This document shows, in pieces, positions 6,136-32,912 of a DNA stretch of 64,000 nucleotides (position 1 is the stretch's first letter; the number at the start of each line of letters is the position of its first letter). The position numbers and the translations under genes were made by a program. This DNA comes from an uncultured virus (IMG/VR IMGVR_UViG_3300033143_002397) (lineage: Duplodnaviria; Heunggongvirae; Uroviricota; Caudoviricetes). The stretch is from IMG/VR virus record IMGVR_UViG_3300033143_002397; one strand, written 5' to 3'. Under the pieces are notes generated by a model that searched no databases, was not told where the DNA came from, and saw nothing but the letters and a program-made list of their open reading frames with translations.

Positions 6136-6468
6136 CTAACGATCTTCACGAAGGATCTTCCCGATCCCCTTGGCCGTCTGCTCCAACTCCTTCCGGCCCT
6201 TTTCGAGATCCTTCTGGACTGCTCGCTGAGCCCTCTGGAGAACCTCACGCTGTTGCTTGGGGCTCAGACCCTTCAAGGCACTGAAACCAGGGAGTTTCGA
6301 CAGGTCTTGTGTTGCGGATACGATTTGCGCTCGCTCACTCACTCGATAGGCAAGTTCATGGAGCTTGCTCGCAACCACCTCGCGATCAGGCTTCTCAGAG
6401 TGGTGGATGAAGGTCCTCAAGGACAGAAGTTCAGCCTGAAGATCCTGGGGAGCAGCAATTCTTTTCAT
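6136..6468 (-). CDS. shared-leader family protein 1 (MKRIAAPQDLQAEL...)
   Basis: N-terminal ~44 aa match those of ORFs 10287 and 32876; motif B 16 nt upstream. Confidence 0.8.
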   Translation of the reverse strand: MKRIAAPQDLQAELLSLRTFIHHSEKPDREVVASKLHELAYRVSERAQIVSATQDLSKLPGFSALKGLSPKQQREVLQRAQRAVQKDLEKGRKELEQTAKGIGKILREDR

Positions 6469-6543
6469 GGCACCGGAGCGAACGCACAAGAAAAGTCTCG
6501 ACGGCTCTCAACAACAGAAGGGCTGGCTCGTAGTAGAGGTCCA

Positions 6544-6921
6544 ATGAGCAACACCACCGACAACACCGCGAACTACGTAGCTGACACCCTCTGCGAGGTC
6601 CGTCGGGCCGGTACCACCGAAGATGGCGAAGATCGCCTTGCCGACATCTGGGTCGTTTTCGTGACCAACGAAGAGGGTCGTCGCTTTCGGGCTCACCGGG
6701 TGTTTCATTCGGACAGCTACCGCACCCATCTCGGTGAGAAGGCAGCTGCTGAGAGCTTCGTTCTGGTCGTTCAGAACGCTCTCGACGCCGGTGACGATCC
6801 CGCAGCTTCGGGTAAATGGTTCGAGGTCGATCCGGCTTACGGCTCGATTGAGTATCAGCGCCTGGATGTCGATGGTCACGAAGCCGCTCGGGAGCGCATG
6901 GACGCCGAACTGGGCCGCTAA
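6544..6921 (+). CDS. hypothetical protein (plus-strand islet)
   Basis: Start refined to ATG6544 (MSNTTDN); fills a gap with no credible minus-strand gene. Confidence 0.7.
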   Translation: MSNTTDNTANYVADTLCEVRRAGTTEDGEDRLADIWVVFVTNEEGRRFRAHRVFHSDSYRTHLGEKAAAESFVLVVQNALDAGDDPAASGKWFEVDPAYGSIEYQRLDVDGHEAARERMDAELGR

Positions 6922-6952
6922 CCCCTCCCCCTACCCCGCAGGAGAACTCAAA

Positions 6953-7243
6953 ATGCCCAAAGGAACTCGGAACATCAAGGTGAGCTACCGGTCGGTTGAC
7001 CGTTACTCGAAGACCCGCAGCTTCAAGACCCTCGAAGGGGCTCAAAAGTTCGCCCAGGAGTGGGTCGGTAAAACCCCCGAGCTGGGGACCGGCTACGCTG
7101 TCTCCGGTGACGGCATCGGCAAGGTCACCGTCGACGGTGCGACCCTCACGGAGCTGTTCCCCAAGCTGGCTCCCTCGGACAGTGGCACTCGTCGATGCAC
7201 CCGCTACAACGAGTACATCGACTCCTACGACCAGCCCTTCTAG
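6953..7243 (+). CDS. hypothetical protein (plus-strand islet)
   Basis: ATG6953 (MPKGTRNIK) with SD AGGAG; converges on the vWA gene stop. Confidence 0.75.
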   Translation: MPKGTRNIKVSYRSVDRYSKTRSFKTLEGAQKFAQEWVGKTPELGTGYAVSGDGIGKVTVDGATLTELFPKLAPSDSGTRRCTRYNEYIDSYDQPF

Positions 7244-7246
7244 GGC

Positions 7247-9625: not shown

Positions 9626-9682
9626 GCGATGTCTCCGGATGTTCTGAAGGTTCTGAGGGGGTACATACACCGGCGGAACCCC

Positions 9683-10222
9683 TTATGTGTCTGGCGGTTG
9701 TGCCGCAGCGATAAGCTGGATGATCGCGGAGATCGACCCGGACGTTATTGAGGTGCTATGGAGCGAGACCCCTAGGGCTTTGGCCGTCTTGCCCAGCTGC
9801 TCGGGAGTCACTTCTGGAAGAGGGGCCTCAAGTACCTGCTGAGCGTCCTCGATTCCTGCCTGAACGCGAGAGATCAGCTCAGAAGCTCTGGGCTGATCTA
9901 TCCAGCGCTCCATGATGGCAGGGAACGTGGTCATCGGAGCCTGGCCGTGGCAGAAGGAACACAGAAGCACGAGGTTGCTAGGCTCGTTCGAGCCCCCAGT
10001 GCCCTTCGCAATGATGTGAGCCCGCTCCAGCTCAGATCGGTTCCACCGATCCGGAACCCTCTTCCTTCTGTCCCAGCTTTCCTTGAAGTGGCCGCAGGCA
10101 AAGCAAGCAGGCTCTCCCAAGTCCACCACCCAGAGGGGCTTCCTCGCGGCCCAAAATGAGGCGATCTCCCAACGACTCGGAAGTGCCCGCCCCACACCCT
10201 TCGTACCCTTGCGGACTGACAT
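9683..10222 (-). CDS. HNH endonuclease
   Basis: CFAC...ERAHIIAKGTGGSNEPSNLVLLCSFCH, a zinc-binding HNH pattern; motif A 9 nt upstream. Confidence 0.85.
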   Translation of the reverse strand: MSVRKGTKGVGRALPSRWEIASFWAARKPLWVVDLGEPACFACGHFKESWDRRKRVPDRWNRSELERAHIIAKGTGGSNEPSNLVLLCSFCHGQAPMTTFPAIMERWIDQPRASELISRVQAGIEDAQQVLEAPLPEVTPEQLGKTAKALGVSLHSTSITSGSISAIIQLIAAAQPPDT

Positions 10223-10286
10223 TCACGTCCATACACCGGTGAGCCCCCTCGAATGACGACTGATCCTCTTGTGCAGCCGCTTGGGC

Positions 10287-10880
10287 ATGAAGAAGATCGC
10301 CACGCCCCAGGACCTTCAGGCTGAGTTGCGTCAGCTCCTTGCCTACAGCCAGGGCGAGACCCCCGAGCGTGGGCGTATCGCAGCTGCTCTCACCTCGATG
10401 GCCGACCGCCTGGCCGCCAGCGATTCCAAGCTGGAGAAGGCCCTCAAGGGCTACCTTCACCACGTGAAGGGCACCAAACCGAAGTACCAGCCTCCCAAGT
10501 CGCTCACAGAGCACGTGAAGCGAGCCCTGGCCCAGGGAGAAGACGAGCAGCGGAAGGCCCTCAAGGGGATCATCCACCACAACCAGGGCACCAAGGAAGA
10601 GTACCAGCTCCCCAACTCTCTGATGCGGCAGCTCCAGGGCGTAACGGCGAGCACCAAGACCGCCATGGACTCCGACGAAGAGGAACTCTACGACGCTGTC
10701 TGGATGATCGCCTCCAACGACGGCGCCTCCTACAAGAAGAAGGACGCCAAGGGAGCTGTCTCGAAAGCGTGGCGAGAGTGGCAGAAGCTCGAAGGCCAAC
10801 GCAACCGTGAGAACTGGCGGAGCGTCGAGAAGCAGATGGTCAAAGACCTGACCGAGCGGTGGAACAAGGGCGAGGTCTAG
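10287..10880 (+). CDS. shared-leader family protein 2 (MKKIATPQDLQAEL...), inverted orientation
   Basis: Leader homologous to 6468 and 32876; plus-strand motif B at 10264-10273; internal repeat KALKGxxHHxxGTKxxYQxPxSL with 39-aa spacing. Confidence 0.8.
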   Translation: MKKIATPQDLQAELRQLLAYSQGETPERGRIAAALTSMADRLAASDSKLEKALKGYLHHVKGTKPKYQPPKSLTEHVKRALAQGEDEQRKALKGIIHHNQGTKEEYQLPNSLMRQLQGVTASTKTAMDSDEEELYDAVWMIASNDGASYKKKDAKGAVSKAWREWQKLEGQRNRENWRSVEKQMVKDLTERWNKGEV

Positions 10881-10886
10881 ACCCCC

Positions 10887-11111
10887 TCAGAGCCCCTCTG
10901 AGGGCTCCGTGGGCTTGGACGACCTCTGAGCCCACTCTTGCTTCCAACGACGCTCTAGGGCCACGCAGGGCTCGCAGATGATGGCTCTGCGGCCGTTGAC
11001 CCAGAAGCAGTCACGGCAACAGTGGAAGCCGTTGCTACAGAACTGGATGAGGTCGTAGTGCGGCTTCTGGTAGGGCTTGCCGCAGGTGGAGCACAGCCCA
11101 AGCTGTGTCAC
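10887..11111 (-). CDS. small Cys-rich (zinc-binding) protein
   Basis: GTG11111 overlaps the upstream TGA (GTGA); CSTC, C, CCRDC, CEPC. Confidence 0.55.
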   Translation of the reverse strand: MTQLGLCSTCGKPYQKPHYDLIQFCSNGFHCCRDCFWVNGRRAIICEPCVALERRWKQEWAQRSSKPTEPSEGL

Positions 11112-11266: not shown

Positions 11267-11273
11267 GAACCCT

Positions 11274-11313
11274 AAATACACGAAGGCCCCGCCCCCGTGA
11301 AGGGACAGGGCCT
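11274..11313 (-). terminator. putative intrinsic terminator after the major capsid gene
   Basis: Minus-strand AGGCCCTGTCCC-TTCAC-GGGGGCGGGGCCT stem followed by TCGTGTATTT (weak U tract). Confidence 0.6.
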
Positions 11314-11335
11314 AGGTGGGCTCACGCCGCGAGGG

Positions 11336-12214
11336 CTAGAACCTGGTGATGACCATCCTGGTCAGACCGCGGGGGTTGAACGCCCCGATGCCCACGTTCT
11401 GGAAGCAGCTGAACCCGATGGTCCGTGCCTTGGGATCGTCGGCGCTCAGAACCGTCAGCTCGGTGCGGACGGGGAAGCGGCCGAAGTTCTCGGGCTCTGC
11501 GCAGATGTAGACGAAGCCGGCGGGCACGAGCCGACTGGTGATGATCTGAGCGCCCCAGAGGGTGGCTTGCAGACCGGTCTTCAGCAGGGTCGCCTGAGAC
11601 TCGATGTCCAGGATGTCCCGACCGAACTTGCGGATGTCGGCGTAGTCGACGGCGTTCATGTAGATTCGCGCTACACGAAGGTCGTGACGCTCCACCTCGG
11701 CGAATGCATCCGCGAGGACGCTCGGAGAGATGGGGGCGACGACGGCCACGTCGGGGTTCGTCTGCCCAGGCAACGTATCGAAGCCCGAGACAGCGATGCT
11801 GTCCAGAACTGCGAAGACACGCTCGTCCTCGGCGGCCTGGATCTGGGCCTTGGCGAGGTCCTGCGACCTCTCCACCAGATCGAACCGACGCTCCTTGACC
11901 TGGGTCAGGGGGATCTCGGGGTTCGAGGCGATCTCGAACAACGGGAAAATGACCCTGCGAGGCTTCTGGATCGCGAGGATGTTCTGGCCCTCTTCGCCGA
12001 CGACAAAGGCCGTAACCTCTGGATCTTTGTCGTAAATCGGGAGTGCGCCGTCTGGCAAACTCTCGACGAGGAATGTACGTCGACCTACGGCCGTGTAGTC
12101 CCTCCTGAGTCGAAGTGGTTGGATCATCGAAGCGGCCAACTTGGCCCGGCCCGCGGCCGTCTTGATGTACTCCGAGATGATCTGCTGCTTGGCTTGGTTG
12201 CTGATGCGATTCAT
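11336..12214 (-). CDS. major capsid protein (HK97-like fold)
   Basis: Follows protease, scaffold and decoration genes; strong SD and biased codons; IYMN...GLQATLWGAQIITSRLVPAG is typical of HK97-fold A/P domains; terminator downstream. Confidence 0.85.
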   Translation of the reverse strand: MNRISNQAKQQIISEYIKTAAGRAKLAASMIQPLRLRRDYTAVGRRTFLVESLPDGALPIYDKDPEVTAFVVGEEGQNILAIQKPRRVIFPLFEIASNPEIPLTQVKERRFDLVERSQDLAKAQIQAAEDERVFAVLDSIAVSGFDTLPGQTNPDVAVVAPISPSVLADAFAEVERHDLRVARIYMNAVDYADIRKFGRDILDIESQATLLKTGLQATLWGAQIITSRLVPAGFVYICAEPENFGRFPVRTELTVLSADDPKARTIGFSCFQNVGIGAFNPRGLTRMVITRF

Positions 12215-12241
12215 CGTCGTGTTCTCCTTCCCTCTCGCCGA

Positions 12242-12862
12242 TCAGACCCGAAGGTCAAGGACCATGAGTGAGTTGTCGGCGTCAGGGGCGACCTTGACGA
12301 TGCCCATGAGGGTGATGCTTTCGAGTGCGGCAACAACCTGCCACTCGTAGGCGTCCGCTGCTCGGTTGGTGAGCAGTCCGTTGACGGAGGCGTACAGAGC
12401 GTCGCCGACCGCGTAGGTGAGAGCGGCGGAGCCACCACCCATCTGTTCTTGCGTCTCCCAGAGCTGCACACCGATGGTCCCTTGACCACTGACGTACGGC
12501 CCGCGCCCACTGGCGACGCCAGGGGTGTTCTCGAACGCATTGCCGACGGAGTCGTTCAGGAAGACGCCGAGGGGCTTCTGGCCAGCGACGTATGCCGCTC
12601 CGACCAGGACTGGTCCGCCGTGATGCCCGTTCCCGGAGTCGGGGCGGGTGAAGGCGATGGATGCGCTCAGAACACCAGTCTTGGTGATGCCTGAGAGCGT
12701 GGTTGAGACGTTGGCTGCCGTAGTGACAATCGGGGGGGTTGCCTGGGTGAACGCATCTGCCGAGAGAACTCCCAGCGCGTTGCGAATCCCCATGTGGTAG
12801 AGCTGGACTCGCCCACTGGTTTCTCCGAAGTCACCCGAGCCTTGGCCGAGGGATAGAGGCAT
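12242..12862 (-). CDS. head decoration/cement protein
   Basis: Between scaffold and capsid; Gly/Ala/Val-rich with YAVGDALYASVNGLLTN; SD AGGAG. Confidence 0.7.
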   Translation of the reverse strand: MPLSLGQGSGDFGETSGRVQLYHMGIRNALGVLSADAFTQATPPIVTTAANVSTTLSGITKTGVLSASIAFTRPDSGNGHHGGPVLVGAAYVAGQKPLGVFLNDSVGNAFENTPGVASGRGPYVSGQGTIGVQLWETQEQMGGGSAALTYAVGDALYASVNGLLTNRAADAYEWQVVAALESITLMGIVKVAPDADNSLMVLDLRV

Positions 12863-12942
12863 TTGCTTTTCTCCTGATACCTAGGTTGCTGGGGTCACTC
12901 TCATCTACATCTACATCTGGGGGATTCGCGGGGACTCGCTGG

Positions 12943-14283
12943 CTACTCGCCGTTGAAGACGCCGCTCATGTCGGGAGCCGACTTCCACATGCTGGAAAGC
13001 TTGTCGATCTCATTGCCCTCAGAGGGAGCACCCGCAGCTGCGGCACCGCCGAGCTGAGAGACGCCGCCAGTTGGGCGGGTTCCGACCGTTCTCGTGGAGG
13101 CGGTACGGGTGGTGCCCGTTGCCGTCACCGGAGCTTGTTGCTGCACGGGGATACCCGTGCGGAGGGCCTCTGCCTGCTGGGCGTCTTGGACCTCTGGGTT
13201 GGACGCGAAGAGCTGGCCAAGGACTGCGTCCTCGGGACCGAGGGGTGTCTCGCCGATGTCCATGACGGCACCGTCGAGCTGGATGTCCATGGGCTCGCCC
13301 TGGATGACCTGCTCACCCTGAGCCATCTCGTCCTGAAGCATCTGGTCGAGCATCTGGTCGTCGCTCAGGACCTTCGAGTCGATGGCCTGCTGAGGCATCT
13401 GCTGCTGCTGCTGCATACCCTGCTGCTGCTGAACGGCCTGCTGGACCATCTGCTGAACCTGCTCAGCGATGGTGAAGGCGGTACCAGAACCGGTGCCCTG
13501 CTTCTGCTGGGTCGCGTCCTCTTCGTCGGCCTCTTGGCCCTTCTGCTGCTGACCCTGGCCTTGACCCTCGGCCTGCTGGCCTTCCTGGTCCTGCTCCTGG
13601 TCTTGCTGCTGCTTCTTTTGGGCAGCCTGCTTGGCTTCGGCTTCGTCCTCTTCCTCGTCGGACTCTTGCTTCTGCTGCTGGGCAGCTTGGACCTGACGCT
13701 GAACCATCGACGCGATGATCTGCTGGGCCGCGTTCTGGTCACCAGCCTGAAGAGCGGCGGCGGCCTTTTTGGCATCGTCGTCGTCCTTCTTGGCGTCATC
13801 GCCGTCCTTGGCCTTGTCCTTCATCTTCTGCTGCTGCTCCAAGAACTCGGGCGGGACCTTGCCCTTGGCGAGGCGGGTGGCCGTCTCGATCAGCTCGACA
13901 TCAGGAAGGTGCATCAGGGCATACGCCTGGTCCTCGACAGCAGCCTCAGCCGCCGTGGGGAGCATGTCGCGAGCGACCTTGATGCAGACCTCGGCCTTCT
14001 TGTTCAGGGTCTCTTCGTCGAGCCCCGCGGTCTTGGAGTCAGGCAACATCTCGGGCATCCCGATCTCGTTGCGCTTGGTCTCGCCGCCGGCCTGCTCCGC
14101 CTTCCAGTTGGGAGGGGTAACATCCTCAGCGAACTCCGAGGGGCCGCCAGTAACGTAGGCGTCCGCAGCGGGTTGCTGCGAAAGGTGATCTTGGTTCATC
14201 GCACGAGGGTCTTCAGCAACTCGGCCCTGACTGGCCCTCTTTGCGATCTCTTCACGGTTCCAAGTAGTGCGCTCGCGCGTCAT
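12943..14283 (-). CDS. putative scaffolding protein (Gln/Glu-rich)
   Basis: Low-complexity helical sequence between protease and capsid genes; motif B variant upstream. Confidence 0.65.
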   Translation of the reverse strand: MTRERTTWNREEIAKRASQGRVAEDPRAMNQDHLSQQPAADAYVTGGPSEFAEDVTPPNWKAEQAGGETKRNEIGMPEMLPDSKTAGLDEETLNKKAEVCIKVARDMLPTAAEAAVEDQAYALMHLPDVELIETATRLAKGKVPPEFLEQQQKMKDKAKDGDDAKKDDDDAKKAAAALQAGDQNAAQQIIASMVQRQVQAAQQQKQESDEEEDEAEAKQAAQKKQQQDQEQDQEGQQAEGQGQGQQQKGQEADEEDATQQKQGTGSGTAFTIAEQVQQMVQQAVQQQQGMQQQQQMPQQAIDSKVLSDDQMLDQMLQDEMAQGEQVIQGEPMDIQLDGAVMDIGETPLGPEDAVLGQLFASNPEVQDAQQAEALRTGIPVQQQAPVTATGTTRTASTRTVGTRPTGGVSQLGGAAAAGAPSEGNEIDKLSSMWKSAPDMSGVFNGE

Positions 14284-14300
14284 GGTTGATACCTTCCTCT

Positions 14301-14324
14301 GCCCTTTCAGGGGATATAAAGAGA
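14301..14324 (-). promoter_or_regulatory. Motif B variant followed by a CCC-TGAAA-GGG hairpin
   Basis: Minus strand TTCTCTTTATATCCCCTGAAAGGGCAGAGGAAGG upstream of ATG14283. Confidence 0.5.
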
Positions 14325-14344
14325 ATCACGACTCTTGGAGGCCA

Positions 14345-15829
14345 TCAGCGCCCAAGGTCGTACAATCTCCCTTTCACAGTCAGGGCATCCGCCTCGGAGC
14401 CCGTAAGCGTTCTTCCGACCACCCGACGACAAGCCGTCAGGTAACTTTCTACATCTCCATATGGGGCCAGACCTCCAACAGCGATGATCGTCCGATACAG
14501 ACGACCTTCGCCTGCGACCTTGGTTGTTTGACCAAAGAGGTCCAACAACCGGGAGATCGCAAGGATGTCTGAGCCCTTGAACTTCTTGGCTGCCTGAACA
14601 GCCTTCCAGCCCCCGCTGCGGTACAGGAGCAGCCCCAACAGCATCCGACGAGACTGACGGGGATCACGGACCTTGGCCTGGACCACCTTCGCAATTGCTC
14701 GCCACTGAGGGTTGCTGAACGCCTCTTTGACCATCGTCTCATTGAGGTTCTCGTGAAGGTCGGCGCTGGGGACCTGCTTGTCGGTCATCTCTCCGCGGAC
14801 CTTGTCGAGAGCCTTCTCGCGGATGAAATCAGCCATCTCACCGATGGCGGTATCCAGGGGATCGTCCTTCTTCTCTTCGTCGCCACCCTCTTCGCCGCCA
14901 CCCTCGGACTCATCACCGAAGTCGAACTGAGACATCCTTCGACCAGCAGCTCGGCTCATGGCTCCAGGGTCCACCAAGCGGGTCGGCTGATTGAAGGCCA
15001 CCTGGACCTTACCGCCGAGAGCAGCAGCCTGCTCAGGGGTGAGGATGCTGCGAAGAACAGCGCCGGTGAAGGCGGGGTTGGCTACCCAGCTCGCCTCGAT
15101 GAACTTGACGCTGCCGGGCTCGGCCGTGACGTGTCCACACAGCTCGGCGATCTTCCGTTGCTGTCCCAGGGCATCGACGAACGAGTTGCCCTTCTGGTAG
15201 CGAATGTGCGAGCAGAGCTGGGCCTCGTCCTCGGCCACGTTGCCGCATTTGGTGCAGATCGTGAAGCCGACCTGGCAACCCATCGAGAGGGTCTGAAGCT
15301 GACCGGACTGAACCGCCGCGATGAGGGGTCGGTGCTTGAGGTCCGTCGCGACCAGGATGTCGACGTAGACGCTGTCACCAATGTCCCTGGCGGCGGCGTC
15401 TATGATCTTGCCCTTGCTCAGCTCGGGGATCTGGAGATGCTCGACGTAGTTCTCACCACCAACGAAGGTGCGGAAGCATGCGAGCAGGAGCTTGCGCTCC
15501 CAGGCGTCGTTGTTGTTGTTGACGTACTTCGAGGTCTCTGGGGTCACCAGATAGTCGTTGAACTGGCGGTCGATCTGGAAACCCTCGACCAGCTGCCGCC
15601 CGAGGGTAGCGTTGACGGTCTTCTCGGTGTCGACCGAGGCAATGATGGTGCAGTGGCTCAGCAGAAACTGGTCCGGCTGGTACTGCTGGAGGATGACGTT
15701 GTTGTTGGCGGTCCGACTATCAAAGGCGGTCCCCATGGCCGTCGCCTGAGCACGAACGTCTGCCTCCCAATCGGCCATGGTGATGGCCGCTTTCGTGACA
15801 GTTGCTCGGGCGTACTTCAGAAAGGCCAT
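14345..15829 (-). CDS. prohead maturation protease
   Basis: NNNDAW, YVEH, KGKIIDA, LSMGC and EASWVANPAF match the HK97/herpes-type protease His/Ser arrangement with a Cys-rich insert; start refined to ATG15829. Confidence 0.8.
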   Translation of the reverse strand: MAFLKYARATVTKAAITMADWEADVRAQATAMGTAFDSRTANNNVILQQYQPDQFLLSHCTIIASVDTEKTVNATLGRQLVEGFQIDRQFNDYLVTPETSKYVNNNNDAWERKLLLACFRTFVGGENYVEHLQIPELSKGKIIDAAARDIGDSVYVDILVATDLKHRPLIAAVQSGQLQTLSMGCQVGFTICTKCGNVAEDEAQLCSHIRYQKGNSFVDALGQQRKIAELCGHVTAEPGSVKFIEASWVANPAFTGAVLRSILTPEQAAALGGKVQVAFNQPTRLVDPGAMSRAAGRRMSQFDFGDESEGGGEEGGDEEKKDDPLDTAIGEMADFIREKALDKVRGEMTDKQVPSADLHENLNETMVKEAFSNPQWRAIAKVVQAKVRDPRQSRRMLLGLLLYRSGGWKAVQAAKKFKGSDILAISRLLDLFGQTTKVAGEGRLYRTIIAVGGLAPYGDVESYLTACRRVVGRTLTGSEADALTVKGRLYDLGR

Positions 15830-15833
15830 GTGC

Positions 15834-16562
15834 TCACCACTCCACGGGGGCGCCGTCGGGGCCGAAGATGTCGTCCCGCTTGATGATGAAGAGGTCCGCC
15901 GGACAAGCAAACAGCTTCATCCGTGTCCCCTCAGCCATCTTGTAGACGGTCTTGCGCATCGGGGATCCGCAACGAGGACAGTTGGGCCTCTTGGAAGCGA
16001 TCTCTTGCCGAGTAGCCCGATGCTGTCGACCCGATGCTGCCCAGTAGGTCGCCGTCTTGCGGGCCAACTGTTGTAGGAACATGTCCGAGCTGTTGTGAGC
16101 GAAGAGGTAGAACTTCTTGACCTCATCGCGAATGGGCTCATCTTCCGCGAACGAAGCAAAGCGATGCCACAGCTCGTCGTAGGCTCGAACCTCACCGGCT
16201 CCCTTGTGGAAGAGCTTGGCTAAAGCCGGATGGAACCCGAGGGGGACCTCAGTCGTGCGCCAGAGGTTGACAGGGACCTTGGAGGCCGCCCGAATCTGGG
16301 CCTGCTGAGCGTCCTGACCAGGGTACCAGGAGAAATCGAGAGACGGAGGCAGGTACGCCGTGAACTCCGGATTGACCCGAATCAACTCTTCGGGGCTGAC
16401 GCGCTCATTGCCGAACGGCCACTGGACATCGAGGAATCCAATCCCTCGGAGGACGGCGGTCACCCGCCCGTAGTAGGGGGACAGCCCGCTGAAGCCCGGA
16501 ACGAACTTCTGCACGATGTCACCGGACTTGAAGTCCTTGGTCAGTTTCCAGTAGTCGATCAT
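15834..16562 (-). CDS. hypothetical protein with C-terminal zinc ribbon
   Basis: CPRC...ACPAD; KTA boundary before the C-terminal module. Confidence 0.75.
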   Translation of the reverse strand: MIDYWKLTKDFKSGDIVQKFVPGFSGLSPYYGRVTAVLRGIGFLDVQWPFGNERVSPEELIRVNPEFTAYLPPSLDFSWYPGQDAQQAQIRAASKVPVNLWRTTEVPLGFHPALAKLFHKGAGEVRAYDELWHRFASFAEDEPIRDEVKKFYLFAHNSSDMFLQQLARKTATYWAASGRQHRATRQEIASKRPNCPRCGSPMRKTVYKMAEGTRMKLFACPADLFIIKRDDIFGPDGAPVEW

Positions 16563-16653: not shown

Positions 16654-19617
16654 CTAGGGAACGAGCGCTTCGCCGTTCTCTTCCTTGCCGGTGTCGACCG
16701 CAGACGACTGATCGTCGCCGTAGGCGCCCATGTAGGGCTCGTCGGCGTCGGTCTGGACCGGCTGGTGGGGGTTCTGGAAGGTGTCCATGTAGGGCTCGTC
16801 CGAGTCCCTCTGGATCACTGCCGCGCAGATCTCGGCCTGCCGCTTCTGAAGGGACTCTTCGCCGAACGTGGCACGCTCGAAGTTGTCAGCGACCGAGTCG
16901 AGGCCGTTGACCACCTTCTTGGCGTCCTCTTGGGTCATGCCCCAAGAAGCGAACTTCGCCTTCACCGCCAAGGCCAGGTTGTCGAGATGGGTCAGGATGT
17001 CGCTCGCCTGCTTGGACTGCTCCGCCGAAAGCTTGGTCGTCATTGTCGTCTCCGTTGATTTCCCAGGTCCTTGCCCCGGAAGGATGTCTCCTGCCCCGGA
17101 AGGGGCACAAGTAGATCCCCGGACAGTCTGAAGTGTTTGCCCAGGGCCTGGCTCAGGCTCCCCCGCCAAACGGGCAAGGAGCATGTTGTAGACCGCGGGA
17201 TGGATTTTCCGGTTGTAGATACTGACCTGGATAGCAAGGTCCAGGGCGGCCCTGAACTGCTGATCCCGTTCCATACCGTCGGTGTTCTGCGTCAGGACAT
17301 TGGATCCCAACCACTCATTGGCCGAAGCCAGAATGGCCTCAAAGTCCGCCTCACCTAGATCACGTTGATGAGCGGGCTCCCAATCAGGGTAGGTCCCCGG
17401 ATCGTCGGCGTAAGGCTCGACCCCGTGGTACATCGCCGTCTTGAAGGACTGGTCCATTGCTAGCCACCCTGGATAAGTAGAAACGTAGCGTTGAGCCACC
17501 CGAGAGGCGGCCTTGCGACGACCAGACATCGTCTCGAACAGAGAGGTCTTCTTGTCCTTCTTGGCGTGCTCTCCATATCGAGCCGGCGGGGACGGTTCGG
17601 TAGGCTCGACATCCGGGAAAGGTATGCTCCCTTTGCCAGCTCCGCCAAAAGGCTGGGTCTTGAAGTGCTTGTCCCGAGCCTTCTTCCACTTGTCGTGAGC
17701 CTTGCCCCACTTCTTGTGTTCGGCTTCGTACTGCTTCGCCTCGATCTTGTCGGTCTTGGCCTGCACGATGGCGTGCTTCTTGGGCTCCAGCGCTCGGAGG
17801 CGATCCATTACTCGCTTCTTGAGCAGATCCTCTGAGCGATGGTCCCCGTCGTTGCCGAGGGACGCCTTGAAGAAGTCCACGACCTTCTTGAGACCACTCA
17901 GGATCGTGCTCGGGCTGTCTCGCTCCGAGAAGCTCTCCTTGTCTTCCGCTTCATCCGTGCCGTCCTTGTCGAGGAACTTGTCCTTGGCCTCGTGGTAGTC
18001 CCTCGCCTGGATGAAGCCCTGGACGATCTTCTTGCTGCCCGGATCGAGCGTCTCCAACAGCTTCTTTGCAGTGGCGTCGTCAGCGATGAACTTCTCACCA
18101 GACCCATCTCGGACGGCGGTGTCGTAGGCGGCCTCGGCCATCTTGTCCGCCAGCTCCCGAGCCTTGATGGGATCACTGGGCTTCGACAGCATGAAGTTGG
18201 CAACCCCAGCGGCCACGGCTGGATGCACACGAGGCTTGCCTGACTTGCCCGGCATGCTCAGCTCGTGGGTCAGCTTCTCCTTGGCCGCGAGGCTGAGTGC
18301 CAGCGTGTCGACCTGGTGCTGACGCATGGCCTCTGTCTTCTGCTCCGAGGACAGTAGGTTGAACGGCTTGCCGTCCCACTTCTGGGGTGGCTTGATCTGA
18401 GAGATGTTCGTCTCGTAGTGCTCAGCCGCCTTGGAGGCGTAGTCCTTGATGTCCTTGACGGGCTCAGACTTGGCGGAGTGGTAGCCCTTAGCCAAGTCCT
18501 TCACGTCGTCCGGATGAAGGTCCTGGGCGATGATGTCCGCGGCGGTATCCTCCGGGAAGGTCTCGGCGATCAGGAGGATGCTGGCCTGTCGCTCTTCAGG
18601 GGTAGGCTCCGACCTCTTCGGGGGCTTGATGCCGGCCCTCTCGGCTGAGGACAGGGCGTTGTAGTCCCTGGCGTTGTAGACGAGCTGAGATATCTTCGCC
18701 ACGCTTGCGATATTCTTGGGCAGCTTGCCTCTCAACTCAGGGAAGATCTTCTCGGGGCGAACGTCGGCGAAGTTGCTGCCCGAGTCCTTGATCTGCTCCC
18801 ATATCTCGGCGCTCTTTCGAGAAGCCTCGCTGTTGGGGTCCGCCAGGGTCTCAAAAGCCTCCCGAAGGACAGGGTCCAATTCCTCCATGGCAGCCGCCGC
18901 TGCCTTCCCCTGCTTCAGGGTATCCTTATCGGCTTGCGCGTCTCTCTGACGAGCGCTGTAGTCATCGATCAGGTTCTTCTGAGCTGCGGGCTGGAGCTTC
19001 TCGAAGGGGACACGCTTCTTGGTCTCAGGGTCAAGGACCGTGGGGTTGCCGAACTCATCCTCGTGACTGGTCGGGATGGCCCCTAGGAAGCGCTTGAAGT
19101 TGCTCTTCTTGCCCTCCCCCGTCTCCACCCAAGCAGCGACCTCAGCCTTGATCTGCTCGGGGTCAGGCTCGTCAGGATCGTCCTTCTTCTTGGACTCGCC
19201 CTTGCCCTTGCCCTTACCCTTGGCCTTCTCAGCCTTCTCTTGCTCCTTGGCCTTGGCCTCTTCGATGGCCTTCTTCTTCTCGTCGTCCTTGAGGGCCTCA
19301 TAGTCACCCGACTTTGGCCCCTTGAGGGTGTCAGGGGCGACCATGACGACTTCCTGCGTCTTCTTGTGACGGACAGGGATCAGCTTCTGCCCCGCGTCGG
19401 CCCACCGCATGAGGACACGGGCAGCTGAGCCACCCACATCCTTGTAGTTCTTGCTCATGTCGGGGTCGGACTCGCCCTCGGTGTCAGGGTCCTTCTCCAG
19501 GTCCATCTGCTCCCTGCGAAGGTCTCGCCGCGGAGGCTTGTCCTTGGGGGCTGGGCGAACGAGGCGCTCGGCCTCTTCGTCCTCACGCTCCAGGTCGTCT
19601 TTGGTGGCCAGACGCAT
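16654..19617 (-). CDS. large charged protein with probable nested in-frame starts at 17457 and 17043
   Basis: 987-aa ORF between portal and protease; internal motif B copies at 17472-17481 and 17106-17115. Confidence 0.75.
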   Translation of the reverse strand: MRLATKDDLEREDEEAERLVRPAPKDKPPRRDLRREQMDLEKDPDTEGESDPDMSKNYKDVGGSAARVLMRWADAGQKLIPVRHKKTQEVVMVAPDTLKGPKSGDYEALKDDEKKKAIEEAKAKEQEKAEKAKGKGKGKGESKKKDDPDEPDPEQIKAEVAAWVETGEGKKSNFKRFLGAIPTSHEDEFGNPTVLDPETKKRVPFEKLQPAAQKNLIDDYSARQRDAQADKDTLKQGKAAAAAMEELDPVLREAFETLADPNSEASRKSAEIWEQIKDSGSNFADVRPEKIFPELRGKLPKNIASVAKISQLVYNARDYNALSSAERAGIKPPKRSEPTPEERQASILLIAETFPEDTAADIIAQDLHPDDVKDLAKGYHSAKSEPVKDIKDYASKAAEHYETNISQIKPPQKWDGKPFNLLSSEQKTEAMRQHQVDTLALSLAAKEKLTHELSMPGKSGKPRVHPAVAAGVANFMLSKPSDPIKARELADKMAEAAYDTAVRDGSGEKFIADDATAKKLLETLDPGSKKIVQGFIQARDYHEAKDKFLDKDGTDEAEDKESFSERDSPSTILSGLKKVVDFFKASLGNDGDHRSEDLLKKRVMDRLRALEPKKHAIVQAKTDKIEAKQYEAEHKKWGKAHDKWKKARDKHFKTQPFGGAGKGSIPFPDVEPTEPSPPARYGEHAKKDKKTSLFETMSGRRKAASRVAQRYVSTYPGWLAMDQSFKTAMYHGVEPYADDPGTYPDWEPAHQRDLGEADFEAILASANEWLGSNVLTQNTDGMERDQQFRAALDLAIQVSIYNRKIHPAVYNMLLARLAGEPEPGPGQTLQTVRGSTCAPSGAGDILPGQGPGKSTETTMTTKLSAEQSKQASDILTHLDNLALAVKAKFASWGMTQEDAKKVVNGLDSVADNFERATFGEESLQKRQAEICAAVIQRDSDEPYMDTFQNPHQPVQTDADEPYMGAYGDDQSSAVDTGKEENGEALVP

Positions 19618-22383: not shown

Positions 22384-22901
22384 CAGATCCGAGCCTGGAT
22401 GGTCAGGTAGTTGTTGTTGACGGTCGAGGGCGGTTGAACCACCACCCCCATGACATTCGCGTTAGGTGCCCTGGGGTCGCCCGAGAGCGTCCACTCGTCT
22501 TCGTTGGTCCACCGACCCCGGAAGGAGAAGACAAGCTCGTCCTGGGCCGCGTAGACGACCGGAACGAGGGGTCCAGCCAGCCGACTGGCGTAGGTGTACT
22601 GCTCGAAGGTTCTGGTCGAGAAGAGCCAACCCCCGAAACCCAGGACCCCATAGCGGTAGTGAGGTTGGCTCCGGGTCAGGGCCGTGAACTCGTCCGAGTC
22701 CTCTTCGGAGCCCCAGAGCAGGAAGCCCTGACCCGCCCCATCGGTGCTCTCGATGGTCATCTCATCACGTGACGAGTTGAACCACTGCATCCCCTGACCA
22801 CCCAGCCAACCATCGTTCGCCAAAGCTGGGCTGATAGCCACAGCGAAGATGTCACCCTTCTTGAAGATGACGAAGTCCCGAGTGCGTTGGATCTCAGGCA
22901 T
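22383..22901 (-). CDS. decoration-like structural protein, paralog B
   Basis: Shares MPExxRTRD, GWxGGQGxQW, GFLxWGS, QPHYR and RGxWTNEDE with paralog A. Confidence 0.65.
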   Translation of the reverse strand: MPEIQRTRDFVIFKKGDIFAVAISPALANDGWLGGQGMQWFNSSRDEMTIESTDGAGQGFLLWGSEEDSDEFTALTRSQPHYRYGVLGFGGWLFSTRTFEQYTYASRLAGPLVPVVYAAQDELVFSFRGRWTNEDEWTLSGDPRAPNANVMGVVVQPPSTVNNNYLTIQARI

Positions 22902-23221
22902 CAGACGAACTCGACCTTCCGCTCTTTACGCCGATTCCTGCCCCAGGCCGCCACGATCTTGGCCAGCAGGTTCACGTGAGGGACACCTCCAGCACCGACC
23001 ATCTCCCACGAGCCCCCACATTTCCGGAAGACCAGTCTCATGGTCATGTAGTCGTCCGGGAGGATCATCACATCCTCGCTCAACTGGTTGTTGGCGAACA
23101 GCCGGATGACCCGGTTGGCGAACACGAGGGGGATCTTTGCGCTATCGTCCACGATTGCCTCGCATACCCCTGAGTACAGATGAACGACCGGCCCCACCTG
23201 CCTTACGGTCCCCGAAACCAC
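22901..23221 (-). CDS. hypothetical protein (start uncertain)
   Basis: Fills the gap after terL; stop overlaps the next ATG. Confidence 0.55.
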   Translation of the reverse strand: MVSGTVRQVGPVVHLYSGVCEAIVDDSAKIPLVFANRVIRLFANNQLSEDVMILPDDYMTMRLVFRKCGGSWEMVGAGGVPHVNLLAKIVAAWGRNRRKERKVEFV

Positions 23222-25163
23222 CGTGCTTGCGGGCTCGCATGATTTGATAGCGCTCCGGGGTCATCCCCGTCGCTGCGTGAGGTCGATGAACCCCCTGACG
23301 AGCCGCGTGCTTCTGGTTGAGCATCGTCTGAGTCGACAGCCAGATGGCACGGATCAGGGCGTCGCTCATGTCGTCGTGGGACCCCTTCTTCTGGGGTGCC
23401 TCAACCATCACCAGGTTCTTACTGATCTGCTTGGCCTGGAGTGTCAGCAGCTCGGCAATGAGGGGGGAGTGTCGGCCGTCGTCCGTGGCCCGCTCCGGGA
23501 TGGGGTAGTCGTAGAGGACCAGTCGCTCATCGAAGAGGAACATCTTGGCCGACTGGAAGAGCTTGCTCGACATGTCGCGGGTGAAGAACTCGGCCTTGAA
23601 CTGCTTGTAGCCCCGCTTGTGGAGCGTCTGCTCCAACGGGATGCCGTTCCACCTATCGAAGAGCCCTGCCGTGATATGGAACCGCTTGCACAGGGTCATG
23701 ATCCACTCAGCGATCTCATCGAAGTCGAGCCGCTGGACATCACTCAACGTCTTGGCGTAATTCGTCGTGAACGCACCGTCCAAGTGAGGATTGGCCTCGC
23801 GCCAATCTCGCCCCGCATACCAGACCTCGTGGTAGTCCAGGACGACCTTGTCGGCCTCGGTGTGCGTGATGGCAACCCCTGTACCGTCACCTACCAGACC
23901 CACGTCAACCCCCATCTGGTGAGGCATCTTGGGACGGGCTCGCATAGCCGGTCGGAGGTTGGGATCGATGCAGACCGTGAGGTCCTCAGCACGCTCGATC
24001 CACCCACGGGCCTGGTCGCTGAACTGAGCCCCGTGTTCTGTCATGAACACGACCGGATCCGAGTGGTACTTCTCCTTGTAGTAGCTCGACGGAACCGTGG
24101 GGTTGATCTCCCAGGTCGGCGCCTGGATGGCCAACAAGTTCTCCGACCCCTCGCCACCCCTCATAGCCAGGTCGAACTTCTCGAAGAACTTGCCGCTCTT
24201 TCCCAAAGGCGAGCTGATGAGGATGATACGGGACTCGACCGCGGCCGTCTCCCCGGTAACAAGGTCGACAGCCGGACGACCCGACTTGACATCCTTGCGG
24301 CTGAAGGCAGCAGCTGACGGTGTGACCGCGTCGTAGATCTCCCTCGCCGAGCTACCGCCCCTGTCCATGAAGTGGGCGACCTCGTCCAGGATGATGACCA
24401 CGTTGCCGGCGCCACGGAGGCCCTTGGCGATGCAGCTCTTGAACGTGACTCTCAGCGTGGCTTTACCGTTGAAGCTGACGAATCGACCGTCTTCCTGACG
24501 GATGTTAGGGCCGTACTTCTCGATGTCGTAGGGGGTCCTGAAGTTGACCCAGCCGAGAGTGTTGTTGGCCACGAAAGGTGAGAAGTAGTCGCACTTGGCC
24601 AGATGGCTGGTCACCTCGTTGAAGAGCAGGCCGGCCTGATCCTTGTCGGTGGCGACCGAGATGATCTGGATGCGGTTGCCGTTCGGCAGCCCGTAGTACC
24701 TCTGGGGATTGTAGAGGTTGAGCAGCCGGTAGACTTCGTAGCTCGCGAAGATGCCCGAGAGGGTTGTTTTCCCAGCCCTCCTACCAATGGCGAGGATCAG
24801 CTCACGACGGTCGTGGTCCTGTGCGCCGATGTTGCACCGACCCTCGTTGTACAGGAAGGTCAGGTATTCACGCTCAGTGAACGTGTAGAGGATCTTCTCC
24901 CCGAATATATCGGGGATCTGGATCTGGTGATTGGGGTCCTCAGGCAGCTCTTCGTCGAGGGGGAGGTTGTAGTAGAGCTTGACGATGAAGCGCTGGGCTG
25001 GATACAGCCGCATGTCCAGGCCCCAAGCAGCCTCGATGTAGTCCAGCACGCTGTAGATGGTGTGCTGGGCAGTATCAATGGCTGCCTGACCCTGAGCGGT
25101 CTTGACCTCGCGGCCCGCCTTGCGGACCAGTGAAGCCAGACCTGTCCGACGCTTCTCCGCCAC
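23142..25163 (-). CDS. terL: terminase large subunit
   Basis: Walker A GRRAGKT, Walker B IILDE, coupling motif ISSP, RNase H-like nuclease MGVDVG...HDDMSDA. Confidence 0.93.
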   Translation of the reverse strand: MAEKRRTGLASLVRKAGREVKTAQGQAAIDTAQHTIYSVLDYIEAAWGLDMRLYPAQRFIVKLYYNLPLDEELPEDPNHQIQIPDIFGEKILYTFTEREYLTFLYNEGRCNIGAQDHDRRELILAIGRRAGKTTLSGIFASYEVYRLLNLYNPQRYYGLPNGNRIQIISVATDKDQAGLLFNEVTSHLAKCDYFSPFVANNTLGWVNFRTPYDIEKYGPNIRQEDGRFVSFNGKATLRVTFKSCIAKGLRGAGNVVIILDEVAHFMDRGGSSAREIYDAVTPSAAAFSRKDVKSGRPAVDLVTGETAAVESRIILISSPLGKSGKFFEKFDLAMRGGEGSENLLAIQAPTWEINPTVPSSYYKEKYHSDPVVFMTEHGAQFSDQARGWIERAEDLTVCIDPNLRPAMRARPKMPHQMGVDVGLVGDGTGVAITHTEADKVVLDYHEVWYAGRDWREANPHLDGAFTTNYAKTLSDVQRLDFDEIAEWIMTLCKRFHITAGLFDRWNGIPLEQTLHKRGYKQFKAEFFTRDMSSKLFQSAKMFLFDERLVLYDYPIPERATDDGRHSPLIAELLTLQAKQISKNLVMVEAPQKKGSHDDMSDALIRAIWLSTQTMLNQKHAARQGVHRPHAATGMTPERYQIMRARKHGGFGDRKAGGAGRSSVLRGMRGNRGR

Positions 25164-25172
25164 AGAGGACCC

Positions 25173-28503: not shown

Positions 28504-28505
28504 CG

Positions 28506-30146: not shown

Positions 30147-30148
30147 CG

Positions 30149-30436
30149 TCAGCTGCCCTTCAGCGGCTCTCCATTGTCCTGGAAGAGACGCTCGATGAAG
30201 TAGTTGCCCTCGTTCTGGCGGATGGCCCAGAGGTCGTTGGTGGACTTGTGAATGAGAGTGTCCGAAGCAATCCGCTGGAAGGGTGCGAGTTGCTGGAGCG
30301 ACCCTATCCTGATCCTCGTGGGAGACGCCTTGACGACGTTGCTGACGGGGGAAACGATCTCGGGCTCAGAGGCCAGCAAGGCATCCATGCCCGTGGCCCC
30401 ACCCGTCTCGAACTTGTCCATATCGAAGTCGCTCAT
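30149..30436 (-). CDS. hypothetical protein
   Basis: 95-aa ORF in the operon. Confidence 0.75.
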   Translation of the reverse strand: MSDFDMDKFETGGATGMDALLASEPEIVSPVSNVVKASPTRIRIGSLQQLAPFQRIASDTLIHKSTNDLWAIRQNEGNYFIERLFQDNGEPLKGS

Positions 30437-30446
30437 GAGGTCTGTC

Positions 30447-31355
30447 CTACGTGATGACGAGTTGAACTAGGAGGTCTACATATGAGTTGTCGCTGTAGCC
30501 GCTGATCCGCAAGGTTTCCTGGTAGGTTCCTCGCGCCATCCCCTCGATGGGTGCGGTGGCTACGTTGACGATCTGCTGACCCCCTGAGGTCAGCGTGCCT
30601 GAGACGGGAGAGAACGACGAAAGCCAGTCGTCGGACAGGCCCGTGAGCCTCTGGATCTGGTATTCCAAAACCGAGCCCGCCGGCCCCGTGTTCTCCAGCG
30701 TGAACTGCTGCGAGGGGATCGGCGGGAAGGGACCCACGAGCGGCGCTATGACCGTGAAGCCGAGCTGCACTGGAGCGATAGCGACAATGGCCTTCGGACG
30801 AACGATGATGGAGACATCGAAAGTCTGAGGGTTGTTGGTCGCGTTGGGGTCCTGGACCGAGATCGTCTCATTGTAAGGACTGTTGAGGTTGAGCAGGTTG
30901 GCCGAGTCGACTGTCACGTCGAAGGCCCCGCTCTCGTTGGCCGCCAGGTTGCCGACGTTGGCCGGCGACGTGACGACGTGACTCGCCGAAGTCGAGAGCG
31001 TGACACCCAACAGAGAGCCGAAGACACCATCGTTGGTGATGACGACGTTCTGGGCATCGCTCCAACCACGACCCTCGTCGACCTCGAATGTGAGGCTCGA
31101 TGGCGGACCCATGAAGATGTTGGCCGGGAAGTTGGCTGTGATCTCGTCGATGGACGAGTTCATCGCCTGCACCACTTCTCCTGGGAGAGGGATGCTGTCC
31201 CGTAGGATGCCGTAGGGGCTGAAGATGTCCCGGATCGAAAAGACAGGTATCGACCCGGTCACGTCCATGCGGGTTGTCCAGCGCCAACTGCCCGTGGTGA
31301 TCACGTGTTGGAACTGGTAGTCCTGAAATCGGATGCTCGCTGCGGAAATAGGCAA
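30447..31355 (-). CDS. Ig-like (BACON-like) tandem beta-sandwich virion protein
   Basis: Two units of the type QxxxIxNxG...W..xSPxSGTL...GTYxETxxI; TTG start with SD GGAGAGG and motif B at 31382-31391. Confidence 0.6.
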   Translation of the reverse strand: MPISAASIRFQDYQFQHVITTGSWRWTTRMDVTGSIPVFSIRDIFSPYGILRDSIPLPGEVVQAMNSSIDEITANFPANIFMGPPSSLTFEVDEGRGWSDAQNVVITNDGVFGSLLGVTLSTSASHVVTSPANVGNLAANESGAFDVTVDSANLLNLNSPYNETISVQDPNATNNPQTFDVSIIVRPKAIVAIAPVQLGFTVIAPLVGPFPPIPSQQFTLENTGPAGSVLEYQIQRLTGLSDDWLSSFSPVSGTLTSGGQQIVNVATAPIEGMARGTYQETLRISGYSDNSYVDLLVQLVIT

Positions 31356-31430
31356 GGCGTACCTCTCCGCTTCAGCGAGGTGATAAGAGAAAACGCCAAG
31401 ATGGGCGAGGCCCCTGGACCTTTCTGGGGG

Positions 31431-32876
31431 CTACTCCTTGGGGCTGAAGCCCTCAGCAGCTTTCAGGGCCTTGATGAACAGGCGGAACTTGGCCTCGTAG
31501 GTGTGAGCCCTTATGCCCATGTTATCGACGATGGCTACGTTCCCGCCCCCCTTGGCCTTCTTGGCCGCAGCAGCTACCTCTTGGCAAGCCTCAACAACGG
31601 CGTTGGCCTTGGCTTCGAGCTTCGAGTAAGGCTCGGCGGCTGCCGTGCGGTCGGTCATTCGCTCGACCAGTCGCTCGACCATCTCACCGTTGGCCGCCTT
31701 GTAGCTGTGGAGACGCTTCAGCTGGGCAGGCTTGAGATCGACAGGGTGACCGTCCCAGGAGCCACTCGGACCAAAGGCCCTGATGTAGTGACGAGGCATC
31801 GACGAGTCAGGGCTGACCAGCATGTCGCCCTTGACCTTGTAGCCCTTTGAGGGGAGCTGCTCGACCAGAGCGGCCCCGCCGCCCTTCTTGATGAGGCGTA
31901 GGAGGCCCTTGGGGAGAGGACCGTCAGCGTCATCCTTGGTGGCGAAGACACGCAAGACCTTGAACGTCGCGTCGTCCTGGCCGTGGTACTTCACCTTGTC
32001 CTTCTGGCCGACAGAGGGTGCGCTCGCCGTCTTCTTGGCTCCCGGCACCTCTACCCATCGGAGATTCTCTTTGAAGTCAGGGGAGACCAAGGCCAGAGTG
32101 GCACCCCCAGGTGCTTCTGAAACGGCGTCGAAGTCCGCGATCAACCAATCCTTACCCTGGTACCTGTACTTATCGCCCGACTTGAGCCCGTTGGGGCCGT
32201 GATACCTGCCCTTGTTTCGCCGGAGGTCCTCCTTCCAAGCCTTGACCTCAGTCTCAGGGATCTTCTCTTTCCTGACTCCCGCGACACGGTCGTAGTCAGC
32301 AGCCCTCTTGCTACCGAGCCCCTCGACGATGCTGATGAGCTTCTTGTGGTCGTTCCACGCCTTCTTCAACTCCGGGCTGTCCTTGAGGTTGCCCTTGTCC
32401 ATGTGCTTCTTGGCGTACATCCGGGTGCGTTGGATGGAGTCCCGCCAATCACCATCGTGGTCGGGCTTGATGCCCTTGATGTCGACCTTCTTACCAGCAA
32501 CCCTGGAGGCGATGCGGACATCGACATAGCCCACATCTTCATTGGAGTGGCCGCCGGGATTCGAGCGAGACTTCTCCACGTCGACCGTCACCACGCCGTC
32601 CTTCTTCACACGCACGACCTTGCCGGTGACCTTTTCCTTCTTGGGCGAACTGGGCTTGGGCCACGGCGTGCCGACCTCGATCTCCACCATGTCCCCCTTC
32701 TTGGCCTTCTCGATGGGCACAAGACGGGCGGCGCACTTCGGGCCAGCAATCCTGTCGGCCAGCTCGTTCAGCTTGCTCGCGACTACCTGGCGGTCGGGCT
32801 TCTCAGAGGCATGGACGAAGGCCATGAGGGCCTGGATCTCGGCTTGCAACTCACGAGGACTGGCAATCTTCTGCAT
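31431..32876 (-). CDS. shared-leader family protein 3 (MQKIASPRELQAEI...), modular Lys-rich protein
   Basis: Leader homologous to 6468 and 10287; motif B 16 nt upstream; modules separated by RIA, RVA, KRA, KTA, RTA. Confidence 0.8.
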   Translation of the reverse strand: MQKIASPRELQAEIQALMAFVHASEKPDRQVVASKLNELADRIAGPKCAARLVPIEKAKKGDMVEIEVGTPWPKPSSPKKEKVTGKVVRVKKDGVVTVDVEKSRSNPGGHSNEDVGYVDVRIASRVAGKKVDIKGIKPDHDGDWRDSIQRTRMYAKKHMDKGNLKDSPELKKAWNDHKKLISIVEGLGSKRAADYDRVAGVRKEKIPETEVKAWKEDLRRNKGRYHGPNGLKSGDKYRYQGKDWLIADFDAVSEAPGGATLALVSPDFKENLRWVEVPGAKKTASAPSVGQKDKVKYHGQDDATFKVLRVFATKDDADGPLPKGLLRLIKKGGGAALVEQLPSKGYKVKGDMLVSPDSSMPRHYIRAFGPSGSWDGHPVDLKPAQLKRLHSYKAANGEMVERLVERMTDRTAAAEPYSKLEAKANAVVEACQEVAAAAKKAKGGGNVAIVDNMGIRAHTYEAKFRLFIKALKAAEGFSPKE

Positions 32877-32912
32877 GGTGTCCCAGAGGTGACACAAGAA
32901 GATCCGTCAACC

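Follow-up and report, generated by a model that had tools for sequence, protein, structure and literature searches.

What does a peptide of 43 or 44 residues do at the head of proteins that are otherwise unrelated, and where does it take them? The question is raised by a 64,000-nucleotide stretch of DNA from an uncultured virus of the Caudoviricetes (IMG/VR IMGVR_UViG_3300033143_002397), hereafter the window, comprising the first 64 kb of one huge-phage virus contig (72,775 bp). Three of its genes, at 6136-6468 (-), 10287-10880 (+) and 31431-32876 (-), encode proteins of 110, 197 and 481 aa that have this N-terminal leader in common. An earlier inspection of the letters (the sequence-only reading) had seen in the leader, and in a motif upstream of it named motif B, a cassette system for loading variable cargo into capsids. 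We tentatively favour, with less than even confidence, a related view in which the leader is a docking handle taking fast-changing, small, mostly basic and modular cargo to one partner, most probably the assembling phage head.

The three open reading frames (ORFs) translate as had been claimed, and their leaders align unambiguously, with 16 of 44 columns invariant and identities to the first leader of 47% and 61%. A hidden Markov model (HMM) of the three leaders, run against 1,580 six-frame segments of the contig, recovers only these three (E 5e-30 to 3e-26; next E 4). Behind the leader the cargos are unrelated, as the sequence-only reading had it, the best pairwise BLASTP E values (0.006, 0.028 and 0.92) not being significant. 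The proportion of synonymous differences (pS) among the three leaders is 0.56-0.82, near saturation, as against a nonsynonymous proportion (pN) of 0.23-0.37, and over 32 leaders (496 pairs) the means are 0.66 and 0.30. Because synonymous sites are near-saturated while pN is low, the leaders are old paralogues kept at the protein level rather than recent copies; judged by these substitutions, the leader domain shows protein-level selection. Degenerate echoes of the leader had also been reported inside the ORF at 760-2571. They amount to two internal pieces below significance (E 8.4 with the 3-sequence HMM, 0.14 with a 31-sequence HMM), and this ORF is the best non-member match of the leader HMM. 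Its product (minus strand, 603 aa) contains an exact tandem duplication of a Lys/Glu-rich unit of about 41 residues, and motif B lies 38 nt upstream of the gene.

Beyond the contig, the leader proved to be common. A profile search covering 1.84 billion representatives returned 579 cluster representatives at E<=1e-3, 225 of them at E<=1e-10. The set examined (n=152) comprises the best 150 listed matches and P0006-P0008, with P0016 dropped as a repeat-protein false positive. In this set the leader begins at residue 1 in 140 representatives and at residues 3-19 in 8, which looks like a matter of start-codon calls; the 4 internal leaders all keep Met at leader position 1. The prediction that an HMM search would return many N-terminal matches with variable C-termini was thus borne out, the cargos of 150 members falling into 116 groups, and the mostly internal placement named beforehand as counter-evidence was not observed. 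All 34 distinct leader ORFs read from DNA (32 loci and the window) begin at the leader's ATG. Viral contigs contributed 3 loci to the scans with the leader alignment and metagenome contigs 23, and a word-indexed search found four relatives, one of them consisting of the leader and only the last module of the 197-aa protein; a separate search of this type, aimed at long leader proteins, gave only 2, of 264-842 aa. All ten representatives that were looked up are metagenomic and carry no assigned protein name. A scan of 185,579 prokaryote species, each represented by a single genome, gave 15 pattern matches, none of which was confirmed. The leader is confined to viral and metagenomic contigs, a phage-only distribution. 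No description of it was found in the literature, which is not searchable by sequence, and the leader defines a large unnamed family.

As to fold and INDEPENDENCE, AlphaFold2 applied to the leader with a 143-row alignment yields a hairpin of two helices (H7-23 and H29-43; mean pLDDT 77). In the full-length model of the 110-aa protein the helices span H7-23 and H29-53, and pLDDT is about 90 (90-92) over residues 11-40; it drops to 57 over residues 51-60, ahead of a single long helix of the cargo (pTM 0.42). The models agree with the helical signal supposed earlier: they predict a self-contained N-terminal domain, a helix-loop-helix hairpin, tied to its cargo via a low-confidence linker. Residues 1-6 are non-regular in the monomer models, in which an interchain strand could not appear, and a complex prediction with two leader copies and the same alignment scored 0.25 (mark 0.42), which speaks neither for nor against self-association of the leader. 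Among 143 aligned members, M1, K3, I4, A5, P7, L10, Q11, E13, P27, R29, A33, L36, L39, A40 and R42 are at least 90% conserved. At the junction the consensus reads A-D-R-V-A with G or A behind it, R42 standing at 94%, A44 at 80% and G/A at position 45 at 64%, so that the R-x-A end proposed from three copies holds for the family; past that point no residue exceeds 22%. From the invariant residues and this sharp stop in conservation, the unit is an invariant N-terminal peptide plus a hairpin ending at R-V-A-G/A.

The earlier reading would have been weakened by a match to a known stand-alone domain, and Pfam, PHROG, PDB and Foldseek gave no significant domain match. Pfam returned nothing above its cut-offs for 29 and for 143 leader proteins. 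In PHROGs, 2 of the 143 members had one match each, both to families whose function is unknown, and families of known function gave no match. Foldseek against PDB and BFVD gave 0 matches at E<=0.001, as is expected of a small hairpin, and the ESM Atlas search gave no usable match for the leader.

What follows the leader changes quickly. Over 150 cargos the median length is 90 aa and the median isoelectric point (pI) 9.1, with pI >8 in 109; BLASTP joins them into 116 components, of which 101 are singletons. The three window cargos have pI 9.4-10.2, and the leader itself 6.5-8.3. Cargo 1 has orthologues in L011, L006 and P0029. The larger proteins are built from modules that recur singly. The 197-aa protein is the leader plus modules X and Y, of which X stands alone behind the leader in P0039 and Y in P0007. 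The 481-aa protein has a small beta-rich insert; another of its modules is found straight behind the leader elsewhere (P0010, P0012, P0052, P0107), and its C-terminal module is common to P0063 and P0034. In locus L025 (1011-1524) the C-terminal module of the 481-aa family can still be read 3' of the second leader gene, where it apparently lies in a different frame or forms an ORF of its own, and may represent a frameshifted or split cassette.

The junction motif also recurs within cargos. DR[VIL]A[GA] occurs inside 5 of the 150, where 0.2 would be expected and 500 shuffles give a maximum of 2, and the 481-aa protein carries R-[IV]-A-G at residues 42, 125 and 197. We read these internal motifs from the sequences as scars of insertion at the leader's end; they are also possible repeated processing sites. 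The occurrence of R[VIL]A[GA] in other window proteins was considered as evidence of cleavage and rejected. Four such motifs lie in structural-region proteins and are conserved or nearly so in G001, a 372-kb IMG/VR contig syntenic with the window (50 of 59 window proteins matched; major capsid protein 95% identical); sitting in generally conserved blocks, they say nothing about cleavage.

Upstream of the leader, the TCTTGTG core of motif B ends 13 or 16 nt 5' of the ATG on the gene's own strand in all three window genes, as had been noted. The claim that motif and leader move as one unit did not hold, as the box precedes leaderless genes too and is missing before 10 of 34 leader genes. Among these 34 the box stands 20-25 nt from the ATG in 23 and at 36 nt in one, and one of the ten genes lacking it has only 17 nt of upstream sequence to scan. 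Of the matches to a position weight matrix (PWM) built from leader loci, 14 lie in the contig and 59 in G001. An ORF (>=50 aa) starts 17-28 nt further on from 24 of the 59 G001 matches, as against 8.6 +/- 3.0 at random (maximum 16 in 200 trials); in the contig the figures are 5 of 14 and 1.8 +/- 1.2. Leader genes make up only 2 of the 24 box-led ORFs of G001. Of the remaining 22, 7 looked spurious on inspection and were left out, and 15 were scanned. Those scanned include genes for a Gp80-type head fibre (PF23140, 9e-47), a collagen-like fibre, a papain-like peptidase, an AAA ATPase and a DUF5661 protein, and nine of the 15 have no domain match. A motif B-like box, GTGATTCTCTTTATA, is conserved upstream of a scaffold-like gene in both the window and G001. 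Motif B (the TCTTCTTGTG box) is not a private part of the cassette; read from its distribution, it would be a promoter-like signal for gene starts in general, possibly one of the late class.

Two other explanations of the box region were discarded. Inverted repeats between motif B and the ATG (for example GTGCCC..GGGCAC) had suggested a hairpin; shuffled columns pair about as well (56.1 of 78 cells, as against 58 observed), with counts as high as the observed one in 229 of 1000 shuffles (23-nt class) and 507 of 1000 (20-nt class), and the pairs show no covariation. The TTG inside motif B was ruled out as the true start codon, many copies reading TTG-TAG. K-mer enrichment was not used for motif B, because the ORF caller starts at that TTG and biases the count. 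Most leader genes have no evident Shine-Dalgarno sequence in front of them.

A second box, CCGGTGTA, was noticed about 10-11 nt 5' of the starts of an HNH gene, a small coiled-coil gene, an NAD ligase gene and the gene 53441-54073 (window 10222-10245; before starts 41441, 53398 and 54073 (-); also in G001). When the upstream regions of the window contig and of G001 are pooled, CGGTGTA is their most enriched 7-mer (14 occurrences as against 1.55 expected). This box is probably another promoter class. The motif B box of leader gene 2 lies back to back with a TACACCGG box facing the HNH gene.

Among known systems, the closest in logic is the capsid-targeting sequence of phage T4, a conserved N-terminal element by which, in the available part of the cited account, the internal proteins IPI-III and Alt are loaded into the core of scaffolding protein (PMC3012670). 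In both cases one conserved N-terminal element stands on unrelated, fast-evolving small and often basic proteins, one gene each, and the position of the leader and the diversity of its cargo reported above fit this T4-type pattern. The T4 tag, however, is short, about 10 residues, and unstructured, and the T4 prohead protease cuts at L/I-x-E with Glu at P1. The leader differs in having 44 residues and a predicted two-helix hairpin, in ending at R-V-A-G/A with no L/I-x-E-type site, and in occurring in 3-4 copies per genome. Membership in the T4 class fails on length, fold and cleavage motif. In cells, encapsulin cargo-loading peptides, microcompartment encapsulation peptides and the N-terminal trafficking domains of polymorphic toxins likewise consist of a conserved terminal module, a linker and interchangeable cargo. 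They follow the same logic as the leader, but belong to cellular systems and have no sequence or family link to it. In giant phages, the portions of PMC10052503 available describe N-terminal propeptides of head proteins, 20-254 residues long, that the prohead protease removes, with cuts after A-x-E in the SPN3US and phiKZ types. The 44-residue leader falls inside this range for the head and ejection proteins of phiKZ, 201phi2-1 and SPN3US, a likeness of length only: an A-x-E is not conserved in the leader, and the propeptides, as far as that source describes them, are not one shared sequence on unrelated cargo. No kinship of the contig to phiKZ was seen in the searches run.

How a head-directed handle might act can be outlined. 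The hairpin and the invariant N-terminal peptide M-x-K-I-A-S/T-P would bind a partner, itself a prohead component; the conserved R-V-A-G/A end could be a processing site; and the cargo would travel into the host together with the DNA. The head-assembly genes at 11336..15910 (-) would specify the candidate destination. One of their products is very acidic and Q/E-rich (pI 4.4) and is read as a putative scaffold from its composition and position only. We place the assembling head first on the strength of the T4 internal protein pattern, the propeptide lengths of giant phages and the box common to fibre and scaffold genes, the presence of motif B before the two fibre genes of G001 and of its variant before the scaffold-like gene being a hint of timing.

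Several observations weigh against this proposal. The junction and its surroundings have no conserved Glu (E occupies position 38 in only 30% of the 143 members), so that a T4-type or SPN3US-type cut is not supported; a conserved A-x-E is absent both within the leader and at its end. The leader is about four times as long as the T4 tag and folded, and so need not work alike. The type of the head protease is assigned on PHROG matches only. Cargos of pI <6 number 23 of 150. The copy number is low, with 3 leaders in the 72.8 kb contig and 4 in the 372 kb of G001, and no copy was found in the nearest named record, a 485-kb uncultured phage whose large terminase is 43.6% identical. Finally, leader genes do not cluster in the head module: their neighbours are of diverse function, and no capsid, portal or scaffold gene lies within 2.5 kb of the leader genes at the 23 metagenome loci.

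The genes that do lie within that distance include those for a sigma factor, exonuclease, HNH endonuclease, PhoH, dCMP deaminase, ribonucleotide reductase, methyltransferase and endolysin. As these neighbours belong mostly to nucleic-acid metabolism and transcription, and an insertion slot recurs directly 3' of the phage sigma factor gene, the leader could instead be a docking or oligomerisation handle for a non-capsid partner, attaching variable basic modules, within the infected cell, to one another or to some component of replication, of transcription or of the host. We regard this alternative as possible but doubtful. It draws on the same modular evidence as the head-directed handle, and the invariant surface residues K3, Q11, E13, R29 and R42 would suit any conserved partner. 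Against it, the box shared with fibre genes and the related box of the scaffold-like gene hint at late expression, and basic cargo with extreme turnover suits packaged, DNA-accompanying proteins at least as well.

The genomic behaviour of the leader genes raises a further alternative. G001 has none of the three window leader genes at the corresponding sites. Its interval from the capsid-side Cys-rich ORF to the vWA gene contains neither leader gene 2 nor the HNH gene; between its sigma factor and a 302-aa gene, about 300 bp take the place of leader gene 3; and before its protamine-like basic gene, motif B stands directly, with a uracil-DNA-glycosylase-like gene upstream. G001 has its four leader copies at about 56, 63, 203 and 263 kb; of these, the 203-kb copy separates the protease gene from the head gene that comes next. 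In five loci the sequences on either side of the slot behind the sigma factor are conserved (the 302-aa protein downstream is 75-86% identical), and the slot is occupied by one or two different leader genes in each, and by none in G001. Leader genes are accessory cassettes, and syntenic genomes carry different ones.

Such exchange would be explained if box, start codon and leader were chiefly a portable expression or recombination unit capturing new coding pieces, the peptide having no targeting role. Besides the differing cassettes and the slot after the sigma factor, the rarity of evident Shine-Dalgarno sequences and the partial leader motifs at internal module joints speak for it, and the PeSL cassettes of T4-type phages provide a precedent in which, as far as the available parts of the sources describe, a short conserved box recurs before variable accessory genes in plastic regions (PMC2839356, PMC4122927). 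The box resembles these cassettes in behaviour and is unlike them in the stem-loop, for which no covariation support exists here between box and ATG; the conserved unit, moreover, reaches into the protein. We nevertheless consider this explanation improbable. That 44 residues are kept despite near-saturated synonymous sites means that constraint acts on the protein, which weakens it. The conserved positions are spaced as in a helix and include invariant polar residues, ten leader genes do without the box, and most box-led genes have no leader.

Least probable of all, in our estimate, is that the leader is a small DNA-binding or regulatory domain, an N-terminal segment and two helices possibly dimerising in ribbon-helix-helix fashion to make DNA-associated factors with variable tails: the invariant extended peptide of residues 1-6 followed by two helices presumably recalls ribbon-helix-helix proteins and the cargo is mostly basic, but Pfam at E<=10 with 31 leaders alone shows no meaningfully recurring family and none of the ribbon-helix-helix or another DNA-binding type, a PDB profile search has nothing below E 0.077, and the leader is near neutral.

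Some further observations concern the exchange sites. The uracil-DNA-glycosylase-like gene of G001 (194974-195670; GQDPYH and HPSP motifs, by eye) fills the slot that leader gene 1 has in the window. Relative to G001 198093-198487, window positions 9683-10880, with the HNH gene and leader gene 2, form a joint insertion. HNH genes flank leader genes in L012, and in L028 one adjoins the ribonucleotide reductase gene; cassettes may spread with the assistance of homing. The protamine-like protein coupled to leader gene 1 combines an Arg/Lys run with an acidic tail. Terminator-like hairpin sites in the region of gene 2 are not more numerous than expected from shuffling.

Pfam and PHROG scans of 61 ORFs resolve two gene blocks, one for head and packaging and one for replication, the latter with clamp loader, primase, RecA-like protein, RecD-like helicase, NAD ligase, ribonucleotide reductase and GroEL, and in addition a sigma factor. 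The phage's own GroEL-type chaperonin (60030-61754), B12-type ribonucleotide reductase (54331-56271) and sigma factor are typical of huge phages. Between terminase and portal, a pair of paralogous genes of 171-172 aa stands side by side at 21868-22901 (-), with three matching copies in G001. The features of the window are collected in Table 1.

Table 1. Positions in the window of the leader genes, their parts and the neighbouring features discussed in the text.
Feature	Position	Strand	Basis or remark
Motif B box before leaderless ORF 760-2571	2601..2615	-	PWM score 18.1
Motif B box before leaderless DUF5661 gene 4605-5126	5135..5149	-	PWM
Gene of very basic, protamine-like protein	5670..6134	-	ATG 1 nt past stop codon of leader gene 1
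Cargo 1 and stop codon, 66 aa, pI 10.2	6136..6336	-	Predicted linker, then one long helix
Leader copy 1, 44 aa	6337..6468	-	Gene 6136-6468; HMM and alignment
Motif B box (ACTTTTCTTGTGCGT) before gene 1	6482..6496	-	PWM score 15.4
HNH endonuclease gene	9683..10222	-	Divergent from gene 2
Motif B box (GATCCTCTTGTGCAG) before gene 2	10262..10276	+	PWM score 19.1
Leader copy 2, 43 aa	10287..10415	+	Gene 10287-10880; HMM and alignment
Cargo 2, modules X and Y	10416..10880	+	Each alone behind the leader elsewhere
Terminator-like hairpin, 11 pairs	10909..10935	+	Just 3' of gene 2
Major capsid protein gene	11336-12214	-	Head-packaging block (Pfam/PHROG scans)
Gene of 206 aa	12242-12862	-	Within head-assembly region 11336..15910
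Acidic, Q/E-rich scaffold-like gene	12943-14283	-	Composition and position
Head-maturation-protease-like gene	14345-15910	-	Head-packaging block (Pfam/PHROG scans)
Portal gene	19617-21401	-	Head-packaging block (Pfam/PHROG scans)
Large terminase gene	23142-25163	-	Head-packaging block (Pfam/PHROG scans)
Cargo 3, 437 aa, pI 9.7, module mosaic	31431..32744	-	Two more R-V-A-G junction-like motifs, residues 125 and 197
Leader copy 3, 44 aa	32745..32876	-	Gene 31431-32876; HMM and alignment
Motif B box (GATCTTCTTGTGTCA) before gene 3	32890..32904	-	PWM score 21.1; directly 3' of sigma factor stop codon
Sigma factor gene	32913-33584		

The head-directed handle can be extended into a bolder proposal, which we put forward with hesitation and hold to be rather unlikely: in a lineage of uncultured huge phages, an undescribed folded address domain of 44 residues, unrelated to the T4 tag, would load well over 100 interchangeable, DNA-friendly modular proteins into the head for co-injection, with the R-V-A-G/A end and its repeats inside the cargo as sites for release of the modules by the head protease. 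If this were true, it would amount to a natural, reprogrammable protein-delivery system and would come with a catalogue of unexplored effectors of the first minute of infection.

Should the leader prove to be a tag for packaging or docking, hundreds of unnamed small huge-phage proteins would become one functional class with a common destination, and the T4 idea of a conserved address and variable injected cargo would hold for a folded domain of another phage lineage that has no homology to the T4 tag. It would also offer a simple handle, through leader-reporter fusions and pull-downs, for finding that destination, and would point to cargo modules likely to be under arms-race turnover. Even without a function, the leader genes provide a clean case of modularity at the level of domains, with cassettes exchanged at fixed slots of huge-phage genomes.

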